Source: an uncultured Candidatus Micrarchaeota archaeon
GTDB taxonomy: Archaea > Micrarchaeota > Micrarchaeia > Anstonellales > Bilamarchaeaceae
DNA: 64,000 nucleotides
Assembly: GCA_963714085.1 (NCBI GenBank)
Contig: OY970229.1
Location: 1,152,001 to 1,216,000 of the forward strand
Direction of reading: 5' to 3'
Position 1 is the first letter of the stretch; each line of letters begins with the position of its first letter. A program made the position numbers and the translations under genes. Shown here one piece after another: positions 3,051-59,581 of the stretch. The notes beneath the pieces are model-generated. The model did not search any database and was not told the origin of the DNA. It was given only the letters and a program-made list of their open reading frames with translations.

Positions 3051-4775
3051 ATGCTTTCTGAAATAAAGGACGAGGCCGCCAGCCTGCTTCATGCGGCGTG
3101 CGGGAAAAAGATCACCGAAGAGGAGGTCGCGCGGACGATGGAGCCGGGCAAGGAGGGCTTCGGCGACCTGGCGAGCAAGCTCGCGTTCTCCCTCGCGCCG
3201 ATTGAGAAAAAGAGCCCGGTGGAGATCGCGAAGGACATCGTCGCCAAGGTTCCCAAATCCAAATTCTTCTCGAAAGTGGAGGCGGTCGGCCCATACGTCA
3301 ACCTTTACATGAGCGACGCGGCCTACTCGTTCGCGCTGCAGAAAATCATGAAGCAGGGGACGAAGTTCGGGCGCGGGAAGAAGACCGGCAAGAAGATGAT
3401 GGTGGAATATTTCCACGCGAACACGCACAAGGGGGTGCACATCGGGCACATAAGGAACATCTCGCTCGGCGAGTCCGTGTGCAGGCTCCTGGAATTCTCA
3501 GGCAACAAAGTGATACGCGCGAACTATCAGGGAGACATCGGCCCGCACGTGGCCAAGTGCCTCTGGGGCTTCATCAACCTCTATGGCGGGAAGGCGCCTG
3601 AGGAGAAACGCGGCATATGGCTCGGCAAAGTCTATGCCGAGGCGTCGCAGAAAACCAAGGGCAACCCGGAGCTTGAGAAGCAGGTGCAGGACATAAACCT
3701 GAAGCTCTATTCCGGGGACAAGGAGATGACCCGGCTGTGGAAGGAGACCAGGCAGTGGTGCCTGGACGACTTCGAGGAGTTCTACAAGGTGTTCGGAGTC
3801 AAGTTCGACGCGTTCTATTTCGAGAGCCAGGTGGAAAAGCTCGGCAAGGAGACCGTGTTGAGGATACTGGACCAGGGCATAGCCAGGAAGGACCAGGGCG
3901 CGATAATAATGGACCTCAAGGGCGACGGCCTCGGCGTCTACGTGCTGCTCACGAAGGAGGGCTACCCGCTCTACTACGCGAAAGAGCTCGGCCTGGTCCA
4001 GATGCAGTTCGGCAAGTACGACCCCGACAGGCTGATCCACGTGGTCGGCAAGGAGCAGGAGCTCTACTTCAAGCAGCTGTTCAAGACCTTCGAGAGGATA
4101 GGCGCGGCCGGGGACAAGCTGTTCGAAAAAGCCGCACGCGCGTCTTATCATCTCATCTACGAGCTCGTCATGCTGCCTGAAGGCAAGATGTCCTCGCGCG
4201 AGGGCACGATGGTCCTCTACGAGGACCTGAAGGACAAGCTGCTGGAAATCGTGAAGGGCGAGGTCAGGAAGAGGCACGCTGACTGGGACGAAAAGAAAGT
4301 CGCAGAGACCGCGCTTTCCATAACGCTCGCCGCCATAAAATTCACCATGGTCCGCAGGGAGAGCAACAGGCAGCTCATATTCGACTGGGACGCGGCGCTC
4401 AGCCTGGAGGGCGACTCGGGCCCGTACCTGCAGTACGCCTATGTGCGCACGAACGGCATACTCAGGAAGGCTGAGTTCAAGCCGCAGATCGCCAAGGGCT
4501 ATGCGTTCACGGCGCAGGAGAAGACGCTGATAAAGCAGCTCTGCCAGTTCCCGGATTCCGTAGAAGGCGCGGCTTCGACCCTGTCTCCGCACGTTCTCTG
4601 CGGCTACCTGCTGGAGCTGGCCGCGGAGCTGAACAGGTTCTACACCACGTCGCGCGTGCTGAACGCGGAAACTGACGAGGAGAAACAGACCAGGCTCGCG
4701 ATGATCGCGGCGACCAATTCCGTGCTCTGGAGCTCCCTGGACCTGCTCGGCATAGGGACCCCGGAGAGGATGTGA
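3051..4775 (+). CDS. argS: Arginine--tRNA ligase
   Basis: HIGH motif (VHIGHIRN), KMSSREG, GDSGPYLQYAYVR, C-terminal PERM. Confidence 0.97.
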   Translation: MLSEIKDEAASLLHAACGKKITEEEVARTMEPGKEGFGDLASKLAFSLAPIEKKSPVEIAKDIVAKVPKSKFFSKVEAVGPYVNLYMSDAAYSFALQKIMKQGTKFGRGKKTGKKMMVEYFHANTHKGVHIGHIRNISLGESVCRLLEFSGNKVIRANYQGDIGPHVAKCLWGFINLYGGKAPEEKRGIWLGKVYAEASQKTKGNPELEKQVQDINLKLYSGDKEMTRLWKETRQWCLDDFEEFYKVFGVKFDAFYFESQVEKLGKETVLRILDQGIARKDQGAIIMDLKGDGLGVYVLLTKEGYPLYYAKELGLVQMQFGKYDPDRLIHVVGKEQELYFKQLFKTFERIGAAGDKLFEKAARASYHLIYELVMLPEGKMSSREGTMVLYEDLKDKLLEIVKGEVRKRHADWDEKKVAETALSITLAAIKFTMVRRESNRQLIFDWDAALSLEGDSGPYLQYAYVRTNGILRKAEFKPQIAKGYAFTAQEKTLIKQLCQFPDSVEGAASTLSPHVLCGYLLELAAELNRFYTTSRVLNAETDEEKQTRLAMIAATNSVLWSSLDLLGIGTPERM

Positions 4776-27383: not shown

Positions 27384-28680
27384 ATGCGTTAGGCCCGGGA
27401 AATCCAACGTCTTCAGACGTTGGATGAAAGGGCCTGATCTGCTCAGCTCCGTCGAGCACCGCGGAAATCCACCCGGGCAACGCTTATAAACGACCTTTCC
27501 GGCAAATCCTTATGAGAGTGACGCGGGCCTGGAAGTACCGGCTCTATCCTTCAAGAAGCCAGGAAAGGCTGCTGAACGACCAGTTCCACGAATGTAAGAC
27601 GCTCTGGAATTCCCTGCTGGAGCACACGAAGGAATACTACGAGGAAACAGGGAAATTCCCTACCAGGAAGCAGCTTTATCTTATGACAAAAGACACGGAA
27701 CTTTATTCCCAGGTAGCTCAGAACGTCGCAGACAGGCTTGTGAAATCCCTGAAGGGGGTGGTCGCCAGGAAAAAAGCCCGCAGGAAGGCAGGCTTCCCAC
27801 GGTTCAAATCATTTGAACGGGTGAAATCCCTGACCTATCCTCAGTTCGGTTTCAAGCTCAAAAACAAGCTGGAGCTGTCAGGGATTGGAAGCGTGGCAAT
27901 CAGGAAACACAGGGAGATGGATGGTGAGATCAAGACCCTGACCATAAAGAAATCCCCTTCAGGGAAGTGGCATGCGATTTTCACGACTGAATCCGAAAGA
28001 AAGATACCCGAGAGAAACAAGATGCCCAAGGTGGGTATCGACCTTGGGATAGAAACATTCGCGTATCTGAGCGACGGCTCAAGGATAGAGAATCCGCGGA
28101 ATCTCAGACTGGCAGAAGAACAGCTGAAGCTTGTCCAAAGGAGGATGTCTAATAAACGGAAGGGCAGCTCAAACAGGGCCAAAAACAGAAAAACGGTTGC
28201 AATCGCCTATGAAAGACTAACGAACAAGAGAAGGGATTTCCTTCACAAGGCAAGTCGTGCCCTTGTGGAGAATCATTCACTCATAGCCATGGAAGCGCTG
28301 AACAACGAAGGATTGGCGCGTGGTTTCCTGGCGAAAGAGGTATTGGACTGCAGCTGGGCGGAGTTCGCCGGCATGATCAGCTACAAGGCGGAAGGAGCTG
28401 GTTGCGAAGTCGTGCTGGTGAATCCCGCTTACACCTCCCAGAAGTGCAGCAACTGCGGTCTTATACAGAAGAAGTCGCTTGCGGAACGGTGGCATGATTG
28501 TCCTTGTGGGGCATCCATGCACAGGGACCTAAATGCAGCGATAAACATACTCCAACGAGCTACCGGTGGAACGCCGGGAAGTAAAGCCTGCGGAGAAGAG
28601 ACCTCTATCCGTTATAAACATAACGGGCAAGTATCTTCAATGAAACAGGAAGCCCACGCCTTTAGGCGTGGGTAGTTCAC
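27384..28680 (+). mobile_element. IS200/IS605-family tnpB-only element, family A copy 2 (1297 bp)
   Basis: Same ends as copy 1; preceded by TTTAA and ending in TCAC; precise removal restores the host ORF. Confidence 0.95.
27512..28675 (+). CDS. tnpB: RNA-guided endonuclease TnpB
   Basis: Close paralog of 6324-7487 with the RuvC D-E-D triad intact. Confidence 0.95.
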   Translation: MRVTRAWKYRLYPSRSQERLLNDQFHECKTLWNSLLEHTKEYYEETGKFPTRKQLYLMTKDTELYSQVAQNVADRLVKSLKGVVARKKARRKAGFPRFKSFERVKSLTYPQFGFKLKNKLELSGIGSVAIRKHREMDGEIKTLTIKKSPSGKWHAIFTTESERKIPERNKMPKVGIDLGIETFAYLSDGSRIENPRNLRLAEEQLKLVQRRMSNKRKGSSNRAKNRKTVAIAYERLTNKRRDFLHKASRALVENHSLIAMEALNNEGLARGFLAKEVLDCSWAEFAGMISYKAEGAGCEVVLVNPAYTSQKCSNCGLIQKKSLAERWHDCPCGASMHRDLNAAINILQRATGGTPGSKACGEETSIRYKHNGQVSSMKQEAHAFRRG

Positions 28681-53222: not shown

Positions 53223-53917
53223 AGCGCGAGTTCATCAAAAGCGGGATACCCGGCCTGGACAAGATAACCGGGGGCGGGCTGCTCGAGGGCTCCGTGGTCA
53301 CGCTGAGCGGGCCTACGGGGAGCGGCAAGAGCACGTTCGCGATGCAGTTCCTGGTGGAGGGGGCGCTCAAGTTCAAGGAGGCCGGCGTCTACATCGCGAT
53401 AGAGGAGAGCAAGGACTCCATGTACTTCCACATGAGCGGCTATGCCTGGGACCTGGACAAGATGGAGAAAGCCCGGCAGCTGGTCTTCCTGGACTACCCG
53501 GTCTACGAGGTGGACCAGTTCATGAACCAGTACTCCGCCATATTGGAGATCATCAACTCAGTGGGCGCGCGTCGCGTGGTCATAGACTCCATAATGCCCA
53601 TAGCCCTGTTCTTCCCCAACGACGAGGAGAGGAAGAAGGGGTTCCTCAAGTTCATAGACAACATCCGCAAGTGGAACACCACGACGCTCATAGTGTCCGA
53701 GGACACGACATCCGCGGCCGGAGAGGCGCTCCCGGAGACCAAGTACGGCATAGAGACCTTCACGGACGCCTGGATACACATATACAACATATTCTCAGAT
53801 AAGACGAAGGAGCGCACCCGCGAGATCGAGGTGCTCAAGATGAAGGGCGCGGCCCACAGCACGAAGAGATACCCGGCGAAGATAGACGCGAACGGGTTCA
53901 CGATACTGGTCAAATAG
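53219..53917 (+). CDS. KaiC/RAD55-family ATPase
   Basis: SGIPGLD, GPTGSGKS, VIDS, LKMKG. Confidence 0.92.
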   Translation: MKREFIKSGIPGLDKITGGGLLEGSVVTLSGPTGSGKSTFAMQFLVEGALKFKEAGVYIAIEESKDSMYFHMSGYAWDLDKMEKARQLVFLDYPVYEVDQFMNQYSAILEIINSVGARRVVIDSIMPIALFFPNDEERKKGFLKFIDNIRKWNTTTLIVSEDTTSAAGEALPETKYGIETFTDAWIHIYNIFSDKTKERTREIEVLKMKGAAHSTKRYPAKIDANGFTILVK

Positions 53918-54431
53918 GCCTGAGAACGCCCCAGACCAGTTTCCGCTCCTTCTCATCCAGCTTGTCGTAATCGGATTCGTACAGGATTATGCGCTTGCCC
54001 AGCTTCAGGAAACGCGCGGCCGACTCTTTCGTGGCCTCCTCGATTATGACATCGTGCACGATCTCCGCATCTCCGTGGTAGCCCGAAGTTGCGACCCCCA
54101 CCAGCAGCCGCTCGCTTTTTTTCCATTCCGAGAGGTCGGCTCCCAAGTCCAGGACCACCCGCGCCTTCACCTTGATGAGCCTCTCGATCATGTCCTTCTT
54201 CACGCTGCACTCGACCTGGATGTTCACGAAATAGGTGAGCTTGTCGTAGATGTCCATGTTGGACGTGGTCCCCCTGATCGCGTCCAGGTCAGCGATGTGG
54301 ATGAGCTTCGCGCCTTTCTCCGAGAGCTTCCTCACGAGCTGCGTGGGGTTCCCCATCATGCGGAGCGAGCCGTGGTCCATCCTGTACGCCTGCTTGTCCT
54401 TCACGTAGAAAAGAGGTATGTCGAGCGTCAT
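53910..54431 (-). CDS. Truncated HisA/HisF-related barrel protein
   Basis: GNP...GAKLIHIADLDA; only 173 aa. Confidence 0.6.
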   Translation of the reverse strand: MTLDIPLFYVKDKQAYRMDHGSLRMMGNPTQLVRKLSEKGAKLIHIADLDAIRGTTSNMDIYDKLTYFVNIQVECSVKKDMIERLIKVKARVVLDLGADLSEWKKSERLLVGVATSGYHGDAEIVHDVIIEEATKESAARFLKLGKRIILYESDYDKLDEKERKLVWGVLRPI

Positions 54432-54472: not shown

Positions 54473-55714
54473 TCATTTTATTGAACGCACTCTCCCAATC
54501 GCGTCCTCTATCTTCAGGGCCTCCTCCTTCCCGCTCGCCATGTCCCTGAGCGTGACTGTGCCGGCCTCCTTCTCGCGCTCGCCTACGACCGCGACGTAGG
54601 GGATGGACAGAGTGTTCGCGTAGTCAAGTTGTTTTCTTAGGTTGCGCTCGTTGAGGTCGGTCTCGCATTCTATTCCCCCGATGCGGAACTTCGCCGCGAC
54701 CTCTAGAGCATAGGAGTATAACTCGGGTTTTACCACCGCGAGGAAGACACGGGTGTCGGTCTTCTTGACCGCCGTCTTCTTCTCGGTTATGAGTGTCACC
54801 AGCCGTTCGATGCCCACCGATATCCCGGTGGCTGGCGCCGGCTGGCCGTAAACCCCTAATAAGTTGTCGTACCTTCCGCCTCCCATGACGCTGCCCATGC
54901 CCTCGCTGAGACTGACCTCGAACACCGGCCCGGTGTAATATCCGAGGCCGCGCGCAAGCGGAAGGCTTATCTCGATCTCGATTCCGCTGCACAGCTCCAG
55001 TATCTGCTCCAGCTCCTTCGCGCCCTCGGGGCTGTATTTGGCCGCGAGCGATAATTTCTTCTTGTTGTCGCCCTCCGCGTTTATCACGTCGAGGAGCTCC
55101 TTCGCCTTCTTCTTGCCGAGTATCTCCTGGAGCAGCTTGTCCACTTCGGCCTCGCCTATCTTGTCGAGTTTGTCCAGCACGCGGAAAACTTCCCCCTTGC
55201 TCTCGTCAAGCCCGAGCTTGGCGGATATCCCGTCGAGTATCTTGCGGTTGTTGAGCAGGATGCGCGGCTTTCCGAACCCGAACGCGACGCAGAGCGTGTT
55301 CGCGATGGAGAGCAATTCCGCTTCGCATCGCATGGACGGGCTCCCTATTATGTCAGCGTCAGCCTGGTAGAACTCGCGGAACCTTCCTCTCTGCGGCTCC
55401 TCCTTCCTCCAGACCACGTCGACCGCATACCGTTTGAAGGGCTTGGGCGTGTCCGTCCCGGCCGCGTATCTGGCGAGCGGCACCGTGAGGTCGAACCTGA
55501 GCCCGTACTCGTTGCCTTCGATCACGAATATCTGCTTGTCCACCTCGGGGCCGGCTTTTGCCCGGAGCGTCTCAAGGTATTCCATGGCCGGGGTCTCCAG
55601 CGGCCGGTAGCCGTAGAGCTGGAAGGTGCGCCGTATGCCGCCTATGACCTCCTCGCGCACGAACATGTCCTCGGGCCCGATGTCCCGCATTCCTTTCGGA
55701 GTGAGCTTTGCCAT
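54473..55714 (-). CDS. hisS: Histidine--tRNA ligase
   Basis: PKGMRD, LRFDLTVP, GRFREFYQ, ARGLGYYTG, GGGRYD, C-terminal anticodon-binding domain. Confidence 0.96.
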   Translation of the reverse strand: MAKLTPKGMRDIGPEDMFVREEVIGGIRRTFQLYGYRPLETPAMEYLETLRAKAGPEVDKQIFVIEGNEYGLRFDLTVPLARYAAGTDTPKPFKRYAVDVVWRKEEPQRGRFREFYQADADIIGSPSMRCEAELLSIANTLCVAFGFGKPRILLNNRKILDGISAKLGLDESKGEVFRVLDKLDKIGEAEVDKLLQEILGKKKAKELLDVINAEGDNKKKLSLAAKYSPEGAKELEQILELCSGIEIEISLPLARGLGYYTGPVFEVSLSEGMGSVMGGGRYDNLLGVYGQPAPATGISVGIERLVTLITEKKTAVKKTDTRVFLAVVKPELYSYALEVAAKFRIGGIECETDLNERNLRKQLDYANTLSIPYVAVVGEREKEAGTVTLRDMASGKEEALKIEDAIGRVRSIK

Positions 55715-55757
55715 GGTAACCACTTTCTACTTTCGGATTTAAAAAATGGAAAGAAAA

Positions 55758-56168
55758 TCAAGGGATGGCCGGGTAGCGCTGCCCCTTTTTCTTCGTCATG
55801 GTCCGGCGCAGTATCTCGCCCAGCACGTCCTCTATCCGGACGCCCCTGTTCACGAGGTACAACTGGACGAAATACAGCAGGTCCGCCGCCTCCCATATCA
55901 GGTTCCTCTCCCCGCGCGCGGTTATCAGCTCGACCGATTCCTCTATGACCTTCTTGCGTATCTTCCTGGGGTCGGCTAGGAGCTGCGACGTGTACGACCC
56001 CGGGTCGGGATTCCGCTCGCGCTCCCGTATCATGGCGGTCTCGAGCTGCAGGGCGAGCGCTGACGGTCCGGACCGCCGGATCATCGCGTCGATATCCCTT
56101 TTCCCGAAAACCTCTGCCGGGTCGGGCAGGGCCTGCTTTTTCGGCGTTCGTATTTTTCTCATGGCCAT
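55758..56168 (-). CDS. hisE: Phosphoribosyl-ATP pyrophosphatase
   Basis: GSYTSQLL, KKVIEESVE, EAADLLYF. Confidence 0.88.
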   Translation of the reverse strand: MAMRKIRTPKKQALPDPAEVFGKRDIDAMIRRSGPSALALQLETAMIRERERNPDPGSYTSQLLADPRKIRKKVIEESVELITARGERNLIWEAADLLYFVQLYLVNRGVRIEDVLGEILRRTMTKKKGQRYPAIP

Positions 56169-56172
56169 CGCC

Positions 56173-57021
56173 TCAGAGGACTATCAGCCTGGGCTCTGTG
56201 ACAACGATGCCAGAGCCCCCGTTCCCTTTCAGCGCCACCACCAGGTCCTCTATGCCTTTCTCCGGCACCGCCGCGGTCAGGGCGTAACCGCCGCCCACGA
56301 TGGGGCTGACGTCAGGATTTTTCAGGGCCGGAAGGATTTTCACCAGCTCGTCCCTTATCAGGTCCGTAGCCGCGTTTACCCGGACCATCAGGCGTTTTCG
56401 CGCTTCTATCACCGCTCTCAGGCAAAGCTCAATCCGGTCGATCTCCGGCTTCCTGCTTTTCAGGGATGCGGGATTCGCTAAAAGCCTCACCCGCGATTCC
56501 ATCAGCACCTTCAGGATGCGCAGGCCGTTCTCGCGCAACGTGGTGCCGGTGTCCACCTGGTCCACTATGGCTTCGGCTATGCGGAAGAACGGCGCGGTCT
56601 CAAGCGCGCCCTGGAGCCGGATTATCTTCGCGCTGCGGCAGTAACGCTCGGCGAGATTAGGCATCGTGGTGGCGATGCTTTCCGGCTCCCTTATCCTCGG
56701 CGGTGCCGCGAGGGCCACCTTGCAGGCCCCGAAATCCAGTTCCATCACCACCGCGAGGTCCCTTATGCGCCCCCAGGAGGGCGTGGTACAAAGGCCGCAC
56801 TCCGCAACGGCATCGTCGCCGGCAATGCCGATGTCCGCGGCACCGCGCGCCACGAACAACGGTATGTCCATGGCGCGTGCCAGCAGCAGCCGCACCCCTG
56901 CCCGAGACGTCGGGACGATGAGCTTCCGGTCGTCTCCGCCAAGGGCCTTCATGCCCGCGTCCTCAAGGAGCCTGAACAACGGCTCCCTCATCCTGCCCTT
57001 GTTGGGCACCGCTATGGTCAC
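56173..57021 (-). CDS. hisG: ATP phosphoribosyltransferase, long form; predicted to be made from ATG 57076 via a +1 frameshift
   Basis: IAVPNKGR, DIP..V..G..DIGIAG, GALE.AP, IVDQVDTGTTLRENGL, C-terminal regulatory domain. Confidence 0.93.
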   Translation of the reverse strand: MTIAVPNKGRMREPLFRLLEDAGMKALGGDDRKLIVPTSRAGVRLLLARAMDIPLFVARGAADIGIAGDDAVAECGLCTTPSWGRIRDLAVVMELDFGACKVALAAPPRIREPESIATTMPNLAERYCRSAKIIRLQGALETAPFFRIAEAIVDQVDTGTTLRENGLRILKVLMESRVRLLANPASLKSRKPEIDRIELCLRAVIEARKRLMVRVNAATDLIRDELVKILPALKNPDVSPIVGGGYALTAAVPEKGIEDLVVALKGNGGSGIVVTEPRLIVL

Positions 57022-57334
57022 TTCATTCGTGAAGTAAACCCCTTCCTTTTTTCACCTTGTTTTCCATTCCATTCATTTTTCACACCTCCTTGTTTTTTCT
57101 CTACATAGCTCCCGTTTCGGGAGAATGCGCACGATTCAACGTTTTCCGGAGCTCTCGCTATGCTTGCGTTTATCCTGCCGCCTTGCGCGGCGCTCACGTT
57201 CAGGAGTATTTTTTCCCCGGTTCTGATCCCGATGGCGTCCCTTATCTCCAAGGGTAAGACTAGCCGGCCCTTCCTGTCAAGCCGGATGAAGCAAATCCCT
57301 TCCCATGAAGGACATCCCTTCCTTGTTTCTCCAT
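57018..57334 (-). CDS. AbrB/MazE/SpoVT-family DNA-binding protein (104 aa), predicted to need two +1 frameshifts
   Basis: IRLDRKGRLVLPLEIRDAIGIRTGEKI AbrB signature has no in-frame ATG/GTG/TTG upstream; the SD-led ATG at 57334 reaches it by +1 shifts at 57310 and 57291. Confidence 0.8.
57023..57076 (-). CDS. hisG leader peptide MNGMENKVKKGRGLLHE* (unshifted product)
   Basis: Strong SD AGGAGGTG; its single His codon sits in the shift cassette. Confidence 0.75.
   Translation of the reverse strand: MNGMENKVKKGRGLLHE
57029..57046 (-). promoter_or_regulatory. Predicted His-sensing +1 frameshift site 3 (GGA AGG GGT TTA CTT CAC)
   Basis: prfB-like SD-like/3-nt/CTT geometry; the +1 frame is hisG. 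Confidence 0.8.
57286..57303 (-). promoter_or_regulatory. Predicted His-sensing +1 frameshift site 2 (GGA AGG GAT TTG CTT CAT)
   Basis: The +1 frame enters the AbrB domain. Confidence 0.8.
57305..57322 (-). promoter_or_regulatory. Predicted His-sensing +1 frameshift site 1 (GGA AGG GAT GTC CTT CAT)
   Basis: The +1 frame places site 2 in register. Confidence 0.78.
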
Positions 57335-57478
57335 CGTTTTCACCTTGTTCGCATGGTCATTGTGATTTTTCCCACTATTTATTTGTTTGTAACAAAATCC
57401 ATCCTCGTCTATTGCTCCCCTCTCCCCGGGTTTTCTGTTGCAGTACGTCTTTTAAACTGATTCAACGAAATTAGCGTA

Positions 57479-58483
57479 ATGGCGATCATGCGGAACAAGC
57501 AGCCGCGCCTGTGGTGGGTGAACGCACAGACCCCAGGTAACGGCCAGCCCCTCTCAAGAAGCAACTCCGCGATACTGCCGGCTGACAGGCAGAACAAAGC
57601 CAGGATATTCTGCAGCCGTAAAGAACTCTCGTTCTCCGCGCAAATGCTCAAGGGAAGGGAGAGGAGCATATGCCAGGATACCATCGCGATGCTCGTGCGC
57701 GACGACATCATCATGGCAGCGGTGCTCGACGGCCACGAAAGCTGGGGTCATTTGTACTCCCTTGAGATGGCGCGCTGCCTGGTCCGTTTAGCCAGGCACC
57801 TGCGGACGCCGACCGGGCCCGATGCCAAGCAGCTCATCATCGAAGCTGCGAAGGCCATGCCGTTTCTCCCCAGCGAAGACTATCTCGAGGCCTTGCTCGG
57901 AGCCCCGAAGAAAGGAGGCACCACGGTGACAGTGGCGCTGTTGGGCAGGGACCGCAGGTACAGCATAGCCACGCTTGGCGACTCGCCGCCGTACCTGGTC
58001 GGGCACGGCTCCGCGAAGCGGCTGTCTGACAGCTCCTGCATCTTGGACATCGATAGAAAAGACGAGGGCGGCCGCCTGTTCATAGGCAAAGACATCGTCC
58101 AATGGGATGATTATCTCGAAGTGCGGAATTACATATTCGGAGCGGTCAACGGATTCGTCACCACCAAGTCGGAGATACAAGTCAAGGAAGGCGAGCTGGA
58201 ACGCGGCATGAAGCTGGTGCTGGTGAGCGACGGGATAACGAAGAACCTCTCATGCGTCACGGACCTTTCCATGAACGTGCTTGATGTGAGCGGCAATCTT
58301 GACATGGCCCGGATCATGCGCGATGGCATGACGCTGACCGAAGCCACCTCGCGCTTGTTATCGGTCGCCCGCAGCCGCGCGGATGGCAAGAGCGGACCCA
58401 CTTTCCGGTCCAACGGTGAGCGCCTCGAGGTCGTTTCACCGGCTGACGATGACATGACCGTGATAGCGCTCGCAGCGGACTGA
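57479..58483 (+). CDS. PP2C/PPM-family phosphatase
   Basis: CQD, VLDGH, GGTT, LGDS, VSDG, DDMT. Confidence 0.85.
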   Translation: MAIMRNKQPRLWWVNAQTPGNGQPLSRSNSAILPADRQNKARIFCSRKELSFSAQMLKGRERSICQDTIAMLVRDDIIMAAVLDGHESWGHLYSLEMARCLVRLARHLRTPTGPDAKQLIIEAAKAMPFLPSEDYLEALLGAPKKGGTTVTVALLGRDRRYSIATLGDSPPYLVGHGSAKRLSDSSCILDIDRKDEGGRLFIGKDIVQWDDYLEVRNYIFGAVNGFVTTKSEIQVKEGELERGMKLVLVSDGITKNLSCVTDLSMNVLDVSGNLDMARIMRDGMTLTEATSRLLSVARSRADGKSGPTFRSNGERLEVVSPADDDMTVIALAAD

Positions 58484-59488: not shown

Positions 59489-59581
59489 AGCCCCGTCGTC
59501 TAGTGGTCAAGGATAGGAGGCTCTGGCTTTTCCTAAAAAAGGAGAAACCTCTTGACATCGGTTCGAATCCGGTCGGGGCTA
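59489..59581 (+). tRNA. tRNA-Gln(CTG) with canonical 37/38 intron (59527-59546)
   Basis: A1-T72 acceptor pair; GGAGG-CTCTGG[intron]A-CCTCT; BHB central helix CTCT/GGAG. Confidence 0.92.

Follow-up and report, generated by a model that had tools for sequence, protein, structure and literature searches.

How does a ribosome enter the frame of a gene that has no canonical start codon? The question is raised by a locus within a stretch of 64,000 nucleotides (nt), here called the window, from contig OY970229.1 of an uncultured Candidatus Micrarchaeota archaeon (assembly GCA_963714085.1, positions 1,152,001 to 1,216,000). At this locus an AbrB/SpoVT-like open reading frame (ORF) without ATG, GTG or TTG at its head stands directly before hisG, the gene for ATP phosphoribosyltransferase. 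The host is archaeal, with a Nop5-type gene present and with homologues and related contigs labelled Micrarchaeota. We found three copies of a short cassette at the locus, each ending in a Leu-His codon pair and each placed where one reading frame gives way to another. Judged from the sequence, these are probably programmed +1 frameshift cassettes of the kind known from prfB and Ty1, in which the slow step would be a His codon and entry into the downstream frame would be gated by the supply of His-tRNA. Positions given below are those of the window, and the features lie on its minus strand unless stated otherwise.

The first two cassettes are arranged in series ahead of the AbrB-like frame. 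Leader ORF 1 (57260..57334) begins at ATG 57334 behind a Shine-Dalgarno (SD) sequence, AAGGTGA (57346-57340), that is complementary to the 16S rRNA 3' end and is kept before the leader ATG of relatives. This zero frame reads MEKQGRDVLH... and closes at TAG 57262-57260 after 24 codons. Its codons 9 and 10, CTT (57310-57308) and CAT, complete cassette 1 (GGAAGGGATGTC CTT CAT; 57305..57322), in which CTT is the putative P-site codon and CAT (His) the putative A-site codon. The +1 frame of this CTT is an intermediate frame (57277..57306) that runs from ATG 57306 to TGA 57279-57277 as ATG GGA AGG GAT TTG CTT CAT CCG GCT TGA, giving MGRDLLHPA and with it a second Leu-His pair. That pair belongs to cassette 2 (GGAAGGGATTTG CTT CAT; 57286..57303, with CTT at 57291-57289), located 19 nt past cassette 1. 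The +1 frame of cassette 2 is the AbrB/SpoVT-like ORF (57018..57287), which has no canonical start codon, opens with IRLDRKGRLVLPLEIRDA, reads IRLDRKGRLVLPLEIRDAIGIRTGEKI..., and ends after 89 codons at TGA 57020-57018. The product of a double shift would comprise 9 + 6 + 89 = 104 residues. Followed upstream, the AbrB frame meets no stop until TGA 57359-57357, and its first ATG, GTG or TTG is TTG 57251, within the domain. On all of these points, from the SD and the 24-codon leader to the two successive +1 frames and the missing start codon, our re-reading of the minus strand agreed with a preliminary description of the locus made from the sequence.

That description stopped at two cassettes, both of which stand; it overlooked a third cassette with a leader of its own directly before hisG, and this is the best-supported part of the reading of the locus. 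Leader ORF 3 (57023..57076) encodes MNGMENKVKKGRGLLHE in 17 codons from ATG 57076 to TGA 57025-57023, and an SD, GGAGGTG, can be read in the sequence at 57083..57089. The leader includes GGA AGG GGT TTA CTT CAC, which forms the core of cassette 3 (GGAAGGGGTTTA CTT CAC; 57029..57046, with CTT at 57034-57032 and CAC at 57031-57029). The +1 frame of cassette 3 is the hisG frame, entered at ACG 57030-57028. The hisG gene itself (56173..57021; 282 codons from GTG 57021) was identified through Pfam HisG (E 1.7e-36) and HisG_C (E 2.9e-09), and its frame is open from 57051 with no canonical start ahead of GTG 57021. The overlap of the AbrB stop, TGA 57020-57018, with the hisG GTG, which had been proposed as a coupled route to HisG, is present in the window and is peculiar to the window genome rather than a general feature; in locus L020 of a relative, it is the ATG of the next leader that the terminal TGA of the AbrB frame overlaps.

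The cassette is rare in the genome outside this locus. The exact motif GGAAGGGNTNTNCTTCAY occurs three times in the whole genome of 1,571,539 bases, each time at the present locus. With at most one mismatch it has 4 matches in the window against 0.03 expected, a number reached in 0 of 100 shuffles, and the looser pattern [AG]AGGG[AG]TNTNCTT has 5 matches in the genome, 3 of them here. The sequence itself appears reliable: a public DNA contig (X1, perhaps from the source sample) covering 56900-57480 differs by one substitution and no indel, and the contig of a related strain (X4) spans both tandem cassettes with no indel there. Contigs of X3 did not align with this stretch.

We then asked whether the same arrangement of SD, leader and cassette, hereafter a single unit, is found elsewhere. 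A scan of 401 genomes of the phylum for the motif gave 59 matches in 39 genomes, 29 of them among the 75 of the window's family, compared with 2 matches in the reversed control. Single units numbered 29 in total, 13 from loci found through the AbrB-like protein and 16 from loci fetched by the pattern. A leader ATG with a strong SD lies 6-22 codons before the cassette in every unit, and a long ORF of 168-443 codons occupies exactly the +1 frame in 29 of 29, two of them running off their contigs. Among the 13 units found through AbrB, the +2 frame closes after no more than 3-60 codons, while the stop of the zero frame is reached 1-52 codons past the His codon. The leaders, of 8-24 codons, carry one His codon each and precede hisG, hisD, hisI and HisZ-like genes. 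We consider it likely that the single units are programmed +1 frameshift sites.

Several of the genes placed behind the cassettes have histidine functions. The gated ORF is hisG in the window, L022, L064 and L072 and, more weakly (below the Pfam cut-off), in L020 and L089; it is hisD in L063, L074, L084, L085 and L087, hisI in L020 and L031, and HisZ/HisRS-like in L042 and L043. The gene for histidyl-tRNA synthetase (HisRS) lies farther down the cluster in the window, L020, L022, L031 and L032. Other gated ORFs encode radical SAM proteins (L021, L033, L081), a recurrent unknown family of about 354-386 residues (L032, L039, L067, L070, L075, L078) and, in a few cases, other unknown proteins.

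Some of these genes would be shortened by translation from a canonical start codon of their own. There is no ATG, GTG or TTG in the +1 frame upstream of the site in 15 of the 29 units, and for 7 of those 15 the first canonical start downstream lies 10-99 codons in (42 in L020, 10 in L022 and L072, 59 in L042, 57 in L043, 99 in L077 and 29 in L089). Initiation at such a codon would delete conserved N-terminal sequence, for example 57-59 codons in the HisZ-like ORFs; the HisS/HisZ family match of L042 starts at residue 12 after the site. A further case is given by the hisG linkers of L020 and L089. These span 16-23 codons from the cassette to the LAVP(D/N)KG motif and hold no start codon, and the two loci differ there by 19 synonymous and 21 nonsynonymous codons with 13 identical, the leader frame meeting stops. 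The linkers are diverged and yet, from the first +1 codon on, conserved as protein, so translation must pass into the +1 frame at or before the cassette.

The composition of the cassette points to the codon that would be awaited in the A site. It was noted that the motif ending in CAY (His) is found 46 times in 28 of 76 family genomes, with 0 in the reversed control, whereas the same motif ending in CAR (Gln) is found 2 times in the same 76 genomes, with 4 in the control. Within the single units, the His codon has C as its third base 18 times and T 10 times, with no constraint on the base after it (A 5, C 10, G 6, T 7). Part of the single-unit set was found by the pattern itself, so its fixed positions partly reflect ascertainment; the units found through AbrB look alike. 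A His codon read in the leader frame would predict this pattern. A start codon placed right after CTTC fits it poorly, because that codon would be ACN in 18 of 28 single units, with any third base and no pairing to the initiator tRNA.

The cassette consists of an SD-like purine tract (GGAAGGGRU), one NUN codon, CUU and CAY, with AGG placed 6 nt ahead of CTT in every cassette. The P-site codon is CTT in each of the three cassettes of the window and, apart from the TTT of L038, in every first or single cassette listed; among the 18 second cassettes of the loci found through AbrB, L025 alone departs from it, with GTT. A tRNA-Leu(GAG), which by the pairing rules reads CUU through a G-U wobble and would pair with UUC through a G-C at that position, was found in the window genome. 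The 16S rRNA of this genome ends in ...GAUCACCUCCA, so GGAGGUGAUC is a full Shine-Dalgarno complement, and both leader ATGs have such a site. Predicted duplexes with the 11-nt 16S tail are -8.4, -8.5 and -8.0 kcal/mol for cassettes 1, 2 and 3, ending 2-3 nt before CTT in a pairing register that is ambiguous. These energies lend modest support to a shift.

To judge the tandem pair, the loci of relatives were collected. A search with the AbrB-like protein returned 18 matches, one of which was the window's own truncated call, and contig scans provided usable loci from genomes (9, L020-L028) and from metagenomes (13, L031-L043); L029 and L030 (weak Gammaproteobacteria matches) and L044 (no AbrB core found) were dropped. 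Together with the window these make 23 loci, or 21 distinct ones, since L024 equals L036 and L028 equals L041 over the compared stretch. The pair that the preliminary description had singled out for comparison across relatives was kept in 17 of the 21: a leader ATG with SD shares its frame with CTT-CAY, the next cassette comes exactly 19 nt later, and the AbrB frame is the +1 frame of that second cassette. The zero-frame stop lies 14 codons past the His codon in 15 of these 17 loci, the intermediate frame is open between the cassettes in every related locus listed, and leader 1 varies among relatives by whole codons (6-11 codons before CTT). The exceptions are L023, in which one base is missing from cassette 1 so that the leader runs directly into the second frame; L038, which is aberrant; and L042 and L043, distant forms with an ATG of their own and no tandem pair. 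The AbrB frame lacks ATG, GTG and TTG from the upstream stop to the shift site in 9 of the 18 loci having cassette 2, and in 5 of these 9 (L020, L023, L025, L027, L031) it is shut by a stop lying between the cassettes or right at them. A bypass of site 1 by ATG 57306, suggested earlier, does not generalise, as this codon is ATA or ACA in many relatives. We further compared the insert between cassette 2 and the domain in L039 and L073, where 6 identical, 3 synonymous and 8 nonsynonymous codons among 17 indicate only weak conservation at the protein level, favouring neither an ATT start nor a frameshift.

Other routes into the AbrB frame were considered and rejected. Databases hold N-terminally extended AbrB ORFs (P0008, P0012, P0015, P0018); from the alignment these extensions are evidently artefacts of conserved nucleotides, because stops close the frame between the cassettes in L020, L023, L027 and L031 and just before the site in L025. 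A -1 shift from leader 1 finds no X XXY YYZ heptamer in the overlap, and L023 and all single units need +1. A ribosomal hop from the first CTT to the second covers 19 nt and lands in the intermediate frame, from which another +1 shift would still be needed.

The earlier assignment of the protein to AbrB/SpoVT held by profile and fold comparison and missed the curated family cut-offs. The 89-residue product reaches 18.1 bits with PF04014, whose cut-off is 24.7, and 26.2 bits with TIGR01439, whose cut-off is 28.3; PF04014 is matched at E <= 0.01 by 16 of 19 aligned homologues, at best with 2.3e-05. A family profile compared with solved structures found SpoVT 2ro5 (E 0.0011), Abh 2fy9, AbrB 1z0r/1yfb and C56, and nothing outside the AbrB superfamily below E 1. 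In an AlphaFold (AF2) model of the product with mean pLDDT 72.4, the 14 best Foldseek matches all belong to the AbrB superfamily (AbrB, SpoVT, C68, Sso7c4, Abh and relatives), the top one being the AbrB N-domain 1yfb (TM 0.56 on the target, probability 0.99, with a weak E of 0.039). Like the AbrB/SpoVT/MazE proteins, the 89-codon frame thus resembles PF04014/TIGR01439, and its predicted fold is similar to those of SpoVT, the AbrB N-domain and, among archaeal proteins, C68 and Sso7c4. It differs from them in that its gene has no canonical start, no partner toxin gene was seen, and its C-terminal third is encoded by an RNA hairpin and looks unconstrained as protein.

Variation within the frame follows the pattern of a functional protein. 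Across 16 loci, the first 35 codons contain 17, 13 and 31 variable sites at codon positions 1, 2 and 3, and the AbrB domain of the window differs from that of L025 by 21 synonymous and 7 nonsynonymous codons. Because variation is concentrated at third positions and synonymous changes are in excess, the alignments argue that the frame encodes a selected AbrB-like protein under purifying selection and is no relic; decay with unconserved indels, which had been named as an outcome that would speak against the double shift, is not what was found. It was also noted that the Leu of the conserved RLVLP in the domain (57273-57268) is CTA in all relatives. CTA is a rare codon in the window genome (3.8 per 1000) and makes the TAG that ends leader 1; it is also retained in L042 and L043, which have no tandem leader.

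The proposed mechanism would work as follows. Ribosomes would initiate on each leader and pause with CUU in the P site, awaiting His-tRNA. When His-tRNA(His) is abundant, CAY would be read and the leader finished a few codons on; when it is scarce, peptidyl-tRNA-Leu(GAG) would slip from CUU to UUC and the ribosome would read on in +1. A single switch of this kind, cassette 3, would give HisG, the product of the first gene in the cluster of hisG, a hisE-like gene and hisS. Two switches, cassettes 1 and 2 with the second decision 6 codons after the first, would be needed for the AbrB-like protein, which may be made only at stronger shortage; as the preliminary description proposed, the output of the regulator would then follow roughly the square of the shift frequency. 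The protein may in turn act on a conserved promoter element, GTGGGAAA. That the window AbrB is made by a double shift seems reasonably probable, and that shifting is tuned by histidine supply we hold with a slight leaning only. The claim that AbrB arises through two programmed +1 shifts at Leu-His pairs is in this way partly supported: the kept pair, the purifying selection and the same cassette before his genes speak for it, and a start at ATT 57296, which sits within cassette 2 (57296-57294), continues to compete with it.

Several observations weigh against this account. The predicted SD-like duplexes place the cassettes only in the top 4.4-5.5% (cassette 1 in the top 4.6%) of 2744 CTTCAY sites (mean -3.5, standard deviation 2.55). 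In-frame CTT-CAT and CTT-CAC are not depleted in the genome (observed/expected 1.9 and 1.4), a result that is unreliable in that it comes from a crude ORF set including antisense frames. Cassette 2 has a Val codon for CTT in the lineages of L025 (GTT), L065, L068, L082 and L083, and +1 re-pairing would be poorer there because of it. Some gated ORFs, encoding radical SAM or unknown proteins, lie outside the known his genes. A tblastn search of the single-contig genome (estimated completeness 87.65%) with the HisD and HisI of relatives found neither at E 1e-5, and ARAGORN, run with its intron option, predicted 43 tRNAs in the same genome and no tRNA-His; the tRNA-His gene may be split, permuted or interrupted by an unusual intron. 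Given a CTT-TTC look-alike in three genomes, described below, the device may also be more general or partly constitutive.

The strongest competitor, which we regard as unlikely, dispenses with frameshifting altogether. The leaders would then be ordinary upstream ORFs, perhaps His-sensing stall peptides, and the downstream proteins would start by themselves: AbrB from the near-cognate ATT 57296 (ATC or ATG in relatives) and HisG from GTG 57021 by termination and reinitiation, with the purine tract of the cassette serving as a weak ribosome-binding site for a start right after CTTC. The codon aligned with ATT 57296 is ATG in L026, L028, L034 and L040 and opens several homologous database proteins, and a further 5 of the 18 loci with cassette 2 have TTG, GTG or ATG farther upstream, so that ordinary or non-AUG initiation of AbrB could serve in some lineages. 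An NCBI record starts the L025 protein at ATC after CTTC (P0010). The codon right after CTTC is ATG in 3 of the 29 single units, exactly at the site, and in 7 first cassettes, with the purine tract about 6-9 nt before it at a plausible SD spacing, and 14 of the 29 units have a canonical start 3-45 codons upstream of the site in the +1 frame. The hisG GTG lies 3 codons past the site and 1 nt past the stop of leader 3, from where reinitiation could give HisG.

Other observations speak against this competitor. Starts after CTTC would leave unexplained the invariant CTT, the CA of CAY and the exclusion of CAR (46 versus 2), and would have to use ACN at most sites. They do not account for the 7 units lacking a canonical start both before the site and for 10-99 codons after it, nor for the linkers of L020 and L089, conserved from their first +1 codon. 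At ATT 57296 there is no SD at a usable distance, since the purine tract abuts the ATT. Our preference for the +1 shift is firmer for the single units than for AbrB.

A second alternative, quite improbable in our assessment, treats the repeated 18-mer as a nucleic-acid signal recognised by a protein or an RNA, for example an operator of the AbrB-like protein or a small hairpin, to which the position at a frame junction would be secondary. The conservation of the cassette does exceed what the leader peptide would need, with T at -4 and T at -2 each in 27 of 28 single units; GAAGG and CCTTC in cassette 1 can pair, with some relatives changed on both arms; and the units are accompanied by a hairpin and by another conserved element, GTGGGAAA. 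Such a signal gives no reason for each unit to have a strong SD and an in-frame ATG 6-22 codons ahead of it, for all 29 to have a long ORF in exactly the +1 frame, or for the last position to take C or T but not A or G. A search of Rfam with 56800-57600 gave no match at E <= 10.

The two accompanying elements were examined in their own right. Ahead of leader 1, a promoter-like element (57365..57383), recognised by its conservation and a candidate operator, is formed by a TATA-like AAATAAATA followed by GTGGGAAAAA; ATAGTGGGAAA is found once in the genome, at this element. In nearly all tandem loci listed with upstream sequence, T(T/A)AATAGTGGGAAA precedes the ATG of the first leader by about 27-49 nt, in most cases by 33-43, and it is duplicated in L042, L043 and L089. 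Of 74 leader units, 39 have GTGGGA in the 130 nt ahead of them, where chance would give 0.029 per 130 nt, and copies of GTGGGAA precede the hisD leaders of L063 and L074, which have no adjacent AbrB gene. The GTGGGAAA-type elements are candidate binding sites of the AbrB-like protein. The RNA hairpin GCAU-CUCCCG-AAA-CGGGAG-UAUGU (57103..57129) lies within the 3' coding part of AbrB, upstream of leader 3, and accounts in the window for the seemingly invariant SRN residues of the AbrB-like product. It has 10 predicted pairs, 4 of which show compensatory changes, one pair being CG in 7 sequences and GC in 6. The hairpin is located about 20-50 nt before the SD of single leader units, and in L020 a copy (3728-3752, plus strand) lies in non-coding DNA between hisG and the hisI leader.

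That the AbrB-like gene is a decaying pseudogene or that its frame breaks are sequencing or assembly errors is very improbable and largely refuted: gene callers do yield only a truncated product of 77 residues here (P0002), in L025 the aligned ATG is immediately followed by a stop codon, and L023 is one base short in cassette 1, but identical frame breaks appear in assemblies made independently from many samples, two public DNA contigs match the window across the cassettes, purifying selection on the domain is strong, and leader lengths change by multiples of three.

Downstream of hisG, the cluster in the window continues with a phosphoribosyl-ATP pyrophosphohydrolase-like gene of hisE type (55758..56168; Pfam PRA-PH E 2.5e-15) and hisS, encoding histidyl-tRNA synthetase (54473..55723; Pfam tRNA-synt_His E 2.2e-42, and an anticodon-binding domain). 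After hisS there is a short His_biosynth-like ORF of 173 residues (53910-54431; HisA/HisF barrel, E 8.1e-06), which aligns only with the first ~90 positions of the His_biosynth barrel and could represent half a barrel or what is left of one. In this genome, then, the histidine pathway looks incomplete, with hisG, a hisE-type gene, the short His_biosynth-like ORF and HisRS; since neither hisD nor hisI was detected by tblastn, the gated cluster may matter more for charging tRNA than for biosynthesis. Among 12 relatives found by the window HisG (37-39% identical), hisB mostly precedes hisG, and no cassette was seen directly upstream of hisG in these 12 neighbourhoods; later scans placed cassettes about 3.6 kb upstream of hisG on the same contigs in G005, G006, G009 and G013. 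Elsewhere in the window, a tRNA-Gln(CTG) predicted at 59489-59581 (plus strand) is 93 nt long, longer than usual, and may contain an intron.

Some matches to the motif were set aside. The one-mismatch copy at 28229-28246 (AGG GAT TTC CTT CAC) lies in frame within a gene for a TnpB-family RNA-guided endonuclease (27512-28675, plus strand; NF040570 E 1.8e-88) and was rejected as a his switch; it probably reflects a peptide motif conserved in TnpB, with no relation to the his switches, and in a relative a similar match (L047) falls in a gene that resembles TnpB by eye. The pattern matches L052/L079, L056, L062 and L080 lie within ordinary ORFs or have no leader, L061 has a +1 ORF of only 45 codons, and L101 is an SD-like tract ahead of the GTG that opens a 419-codon ORF, aspartokinase-like by its N-terminal motif alone. 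Separately, L090 (minus strand), L092 (plus) and L100 (plus), near position 1513, have CTT TTC for CTT CAY at the end of a leader reading ...NGRDLLF, with the same SD and purine tract. In L090 and L092, the +1 frame encodes a helix-turn-helix (HTH) protein of 74-79 codons (HTH_7/HTH_11) with no canonical start for 40-54 codons. This variant may be a Phe-codon form or simply a slippery (CUUUUC) form of the device, and its occurrence ahead of a small HTH protein raises the possibility of a device adapted to signals other than histidine.

We next compared the cassette with known systems. In the prfB site (AGG GGG UAU CUU UGA), CUU is likewise the P-site codon, and a single codon separates the SD-like AGGGGG from CUU UGA. 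The present cassettes share with prfB (RF2) a short zero-frame stretch, an internal SD-like tract, one intervening codon and a P-site CUU, and would share with it a slow A-site codon, a +1 shift and the sensing of whatever decodes the A site. They differ in that the A-site codon is a sense His codon rather than UGA and the sensed molecule would be His-tRNA rather than RF2; moreover, the site is located in a separate leader ORF and not in the gene body, is used serially, precedes several genes and belongs to an archaeal host. Bacterial hisL leaders contain a run of His codons, and the speed of the ribosome over them reads charged tRNA-His through alternative hairpins and a terminator. The window leaders resemble hisL as short ORFs with a His codon upstream of his biosynthesis genes, but they have a single His codon and their read-out would be a change of frame, the coding frame of the gated gene starting inside the leader. 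No terminator or antiterminator hairpins were found after the leader; the sole conserved hairpin lies upstream of the leader SD and has no T-run.

Another known system is the yeast element Ty1, whose site CUU_AGG_C has a P-site CUU followed by a slowly read sense codon, as described in a review of frameshifting (PMC5009743). As in this "hungry codon" case, peptidyl-tRNA-Leu would slip on CUU with a scarce-tRNA sense codon in the A site (PMC5009743); Ty1 fixes the Gag:Gag-Pol ratio in yeast, whereas here the hungry codon matches the pathway under control. Of starvation-specific trans-frame products from hungry-codon shifting, a passage of that 2016 review by Atkins and colleagues states that "no examples are known" (PMC5009743). 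Among the titles and listings covered by our literature search, none dealt with a frameshift that senses histidine, with frameshifting in Micrarchaeota or DPANN, or with a link between archaeal AbrB and his genes. The kind of device, sensory +1 frameshifting, is known; the novelty lies in what is sensed, in the design with a leader ORF, in the use of cassettes in series and in a host that is an archaeon. To our knowledge, the regulation of amino-acid biosynthesis in archaea is poorly understood, and we know of no bacterial-style attenuation or T-boxes in this domain.

The finding also bears on annotation, because gene callers shorten or miss gated genes: some hisG, hisD and HisZ-like ORFs have their first start codons 10-130 codons past the site. 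The cassette further marks the radical SAM enzymes and the family of about 354 residues as candidates for histidine-linked functions. Members of that family were located at L032:1165-2235, L039:716-1873, L067:1655-2716, L070:435-1502(-), L075:441-1502(-) and L078:83-1144(-), with no Pfam or NCBIfam match. A language-model atlas returned weak leads for it, NurA-like and cyclodipeptide-synthase-like, at a low recognition score. We consider this family a candidate for a function linked to histidine or to His-tRNA.

Taken together, the balance of evidence tilts slightly towards a family of Micrarchaeota (DPANN) that uses a portable "frameshift attenuator" composed of a hairpin, an SD, a leader and a +1 site like that of RF2, with a His codon in place of the stop codon. 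Low charging of His-tRNA would turn on HisG, HisD, HisI and HisZ-like proteins and HisRS downstream, and the serial pair would act as a steep, second-order switch for an AbrB-type transcription factor. If this is true, the reading frame itself would be a sensor of tRNA charging, an idea discussed since the "hungry codon" experiments, and the locus would represent the first natural use of hungry-codon frameshifting as an amino-acid sensor and a third kind of sensory +1 frameshift beside those of RF2 and antizyme. It would also imply SD-like stimulation of frameshifting in archaeal ribosomes, and would offer a compact, portable part for amino-acid-responsive switches.

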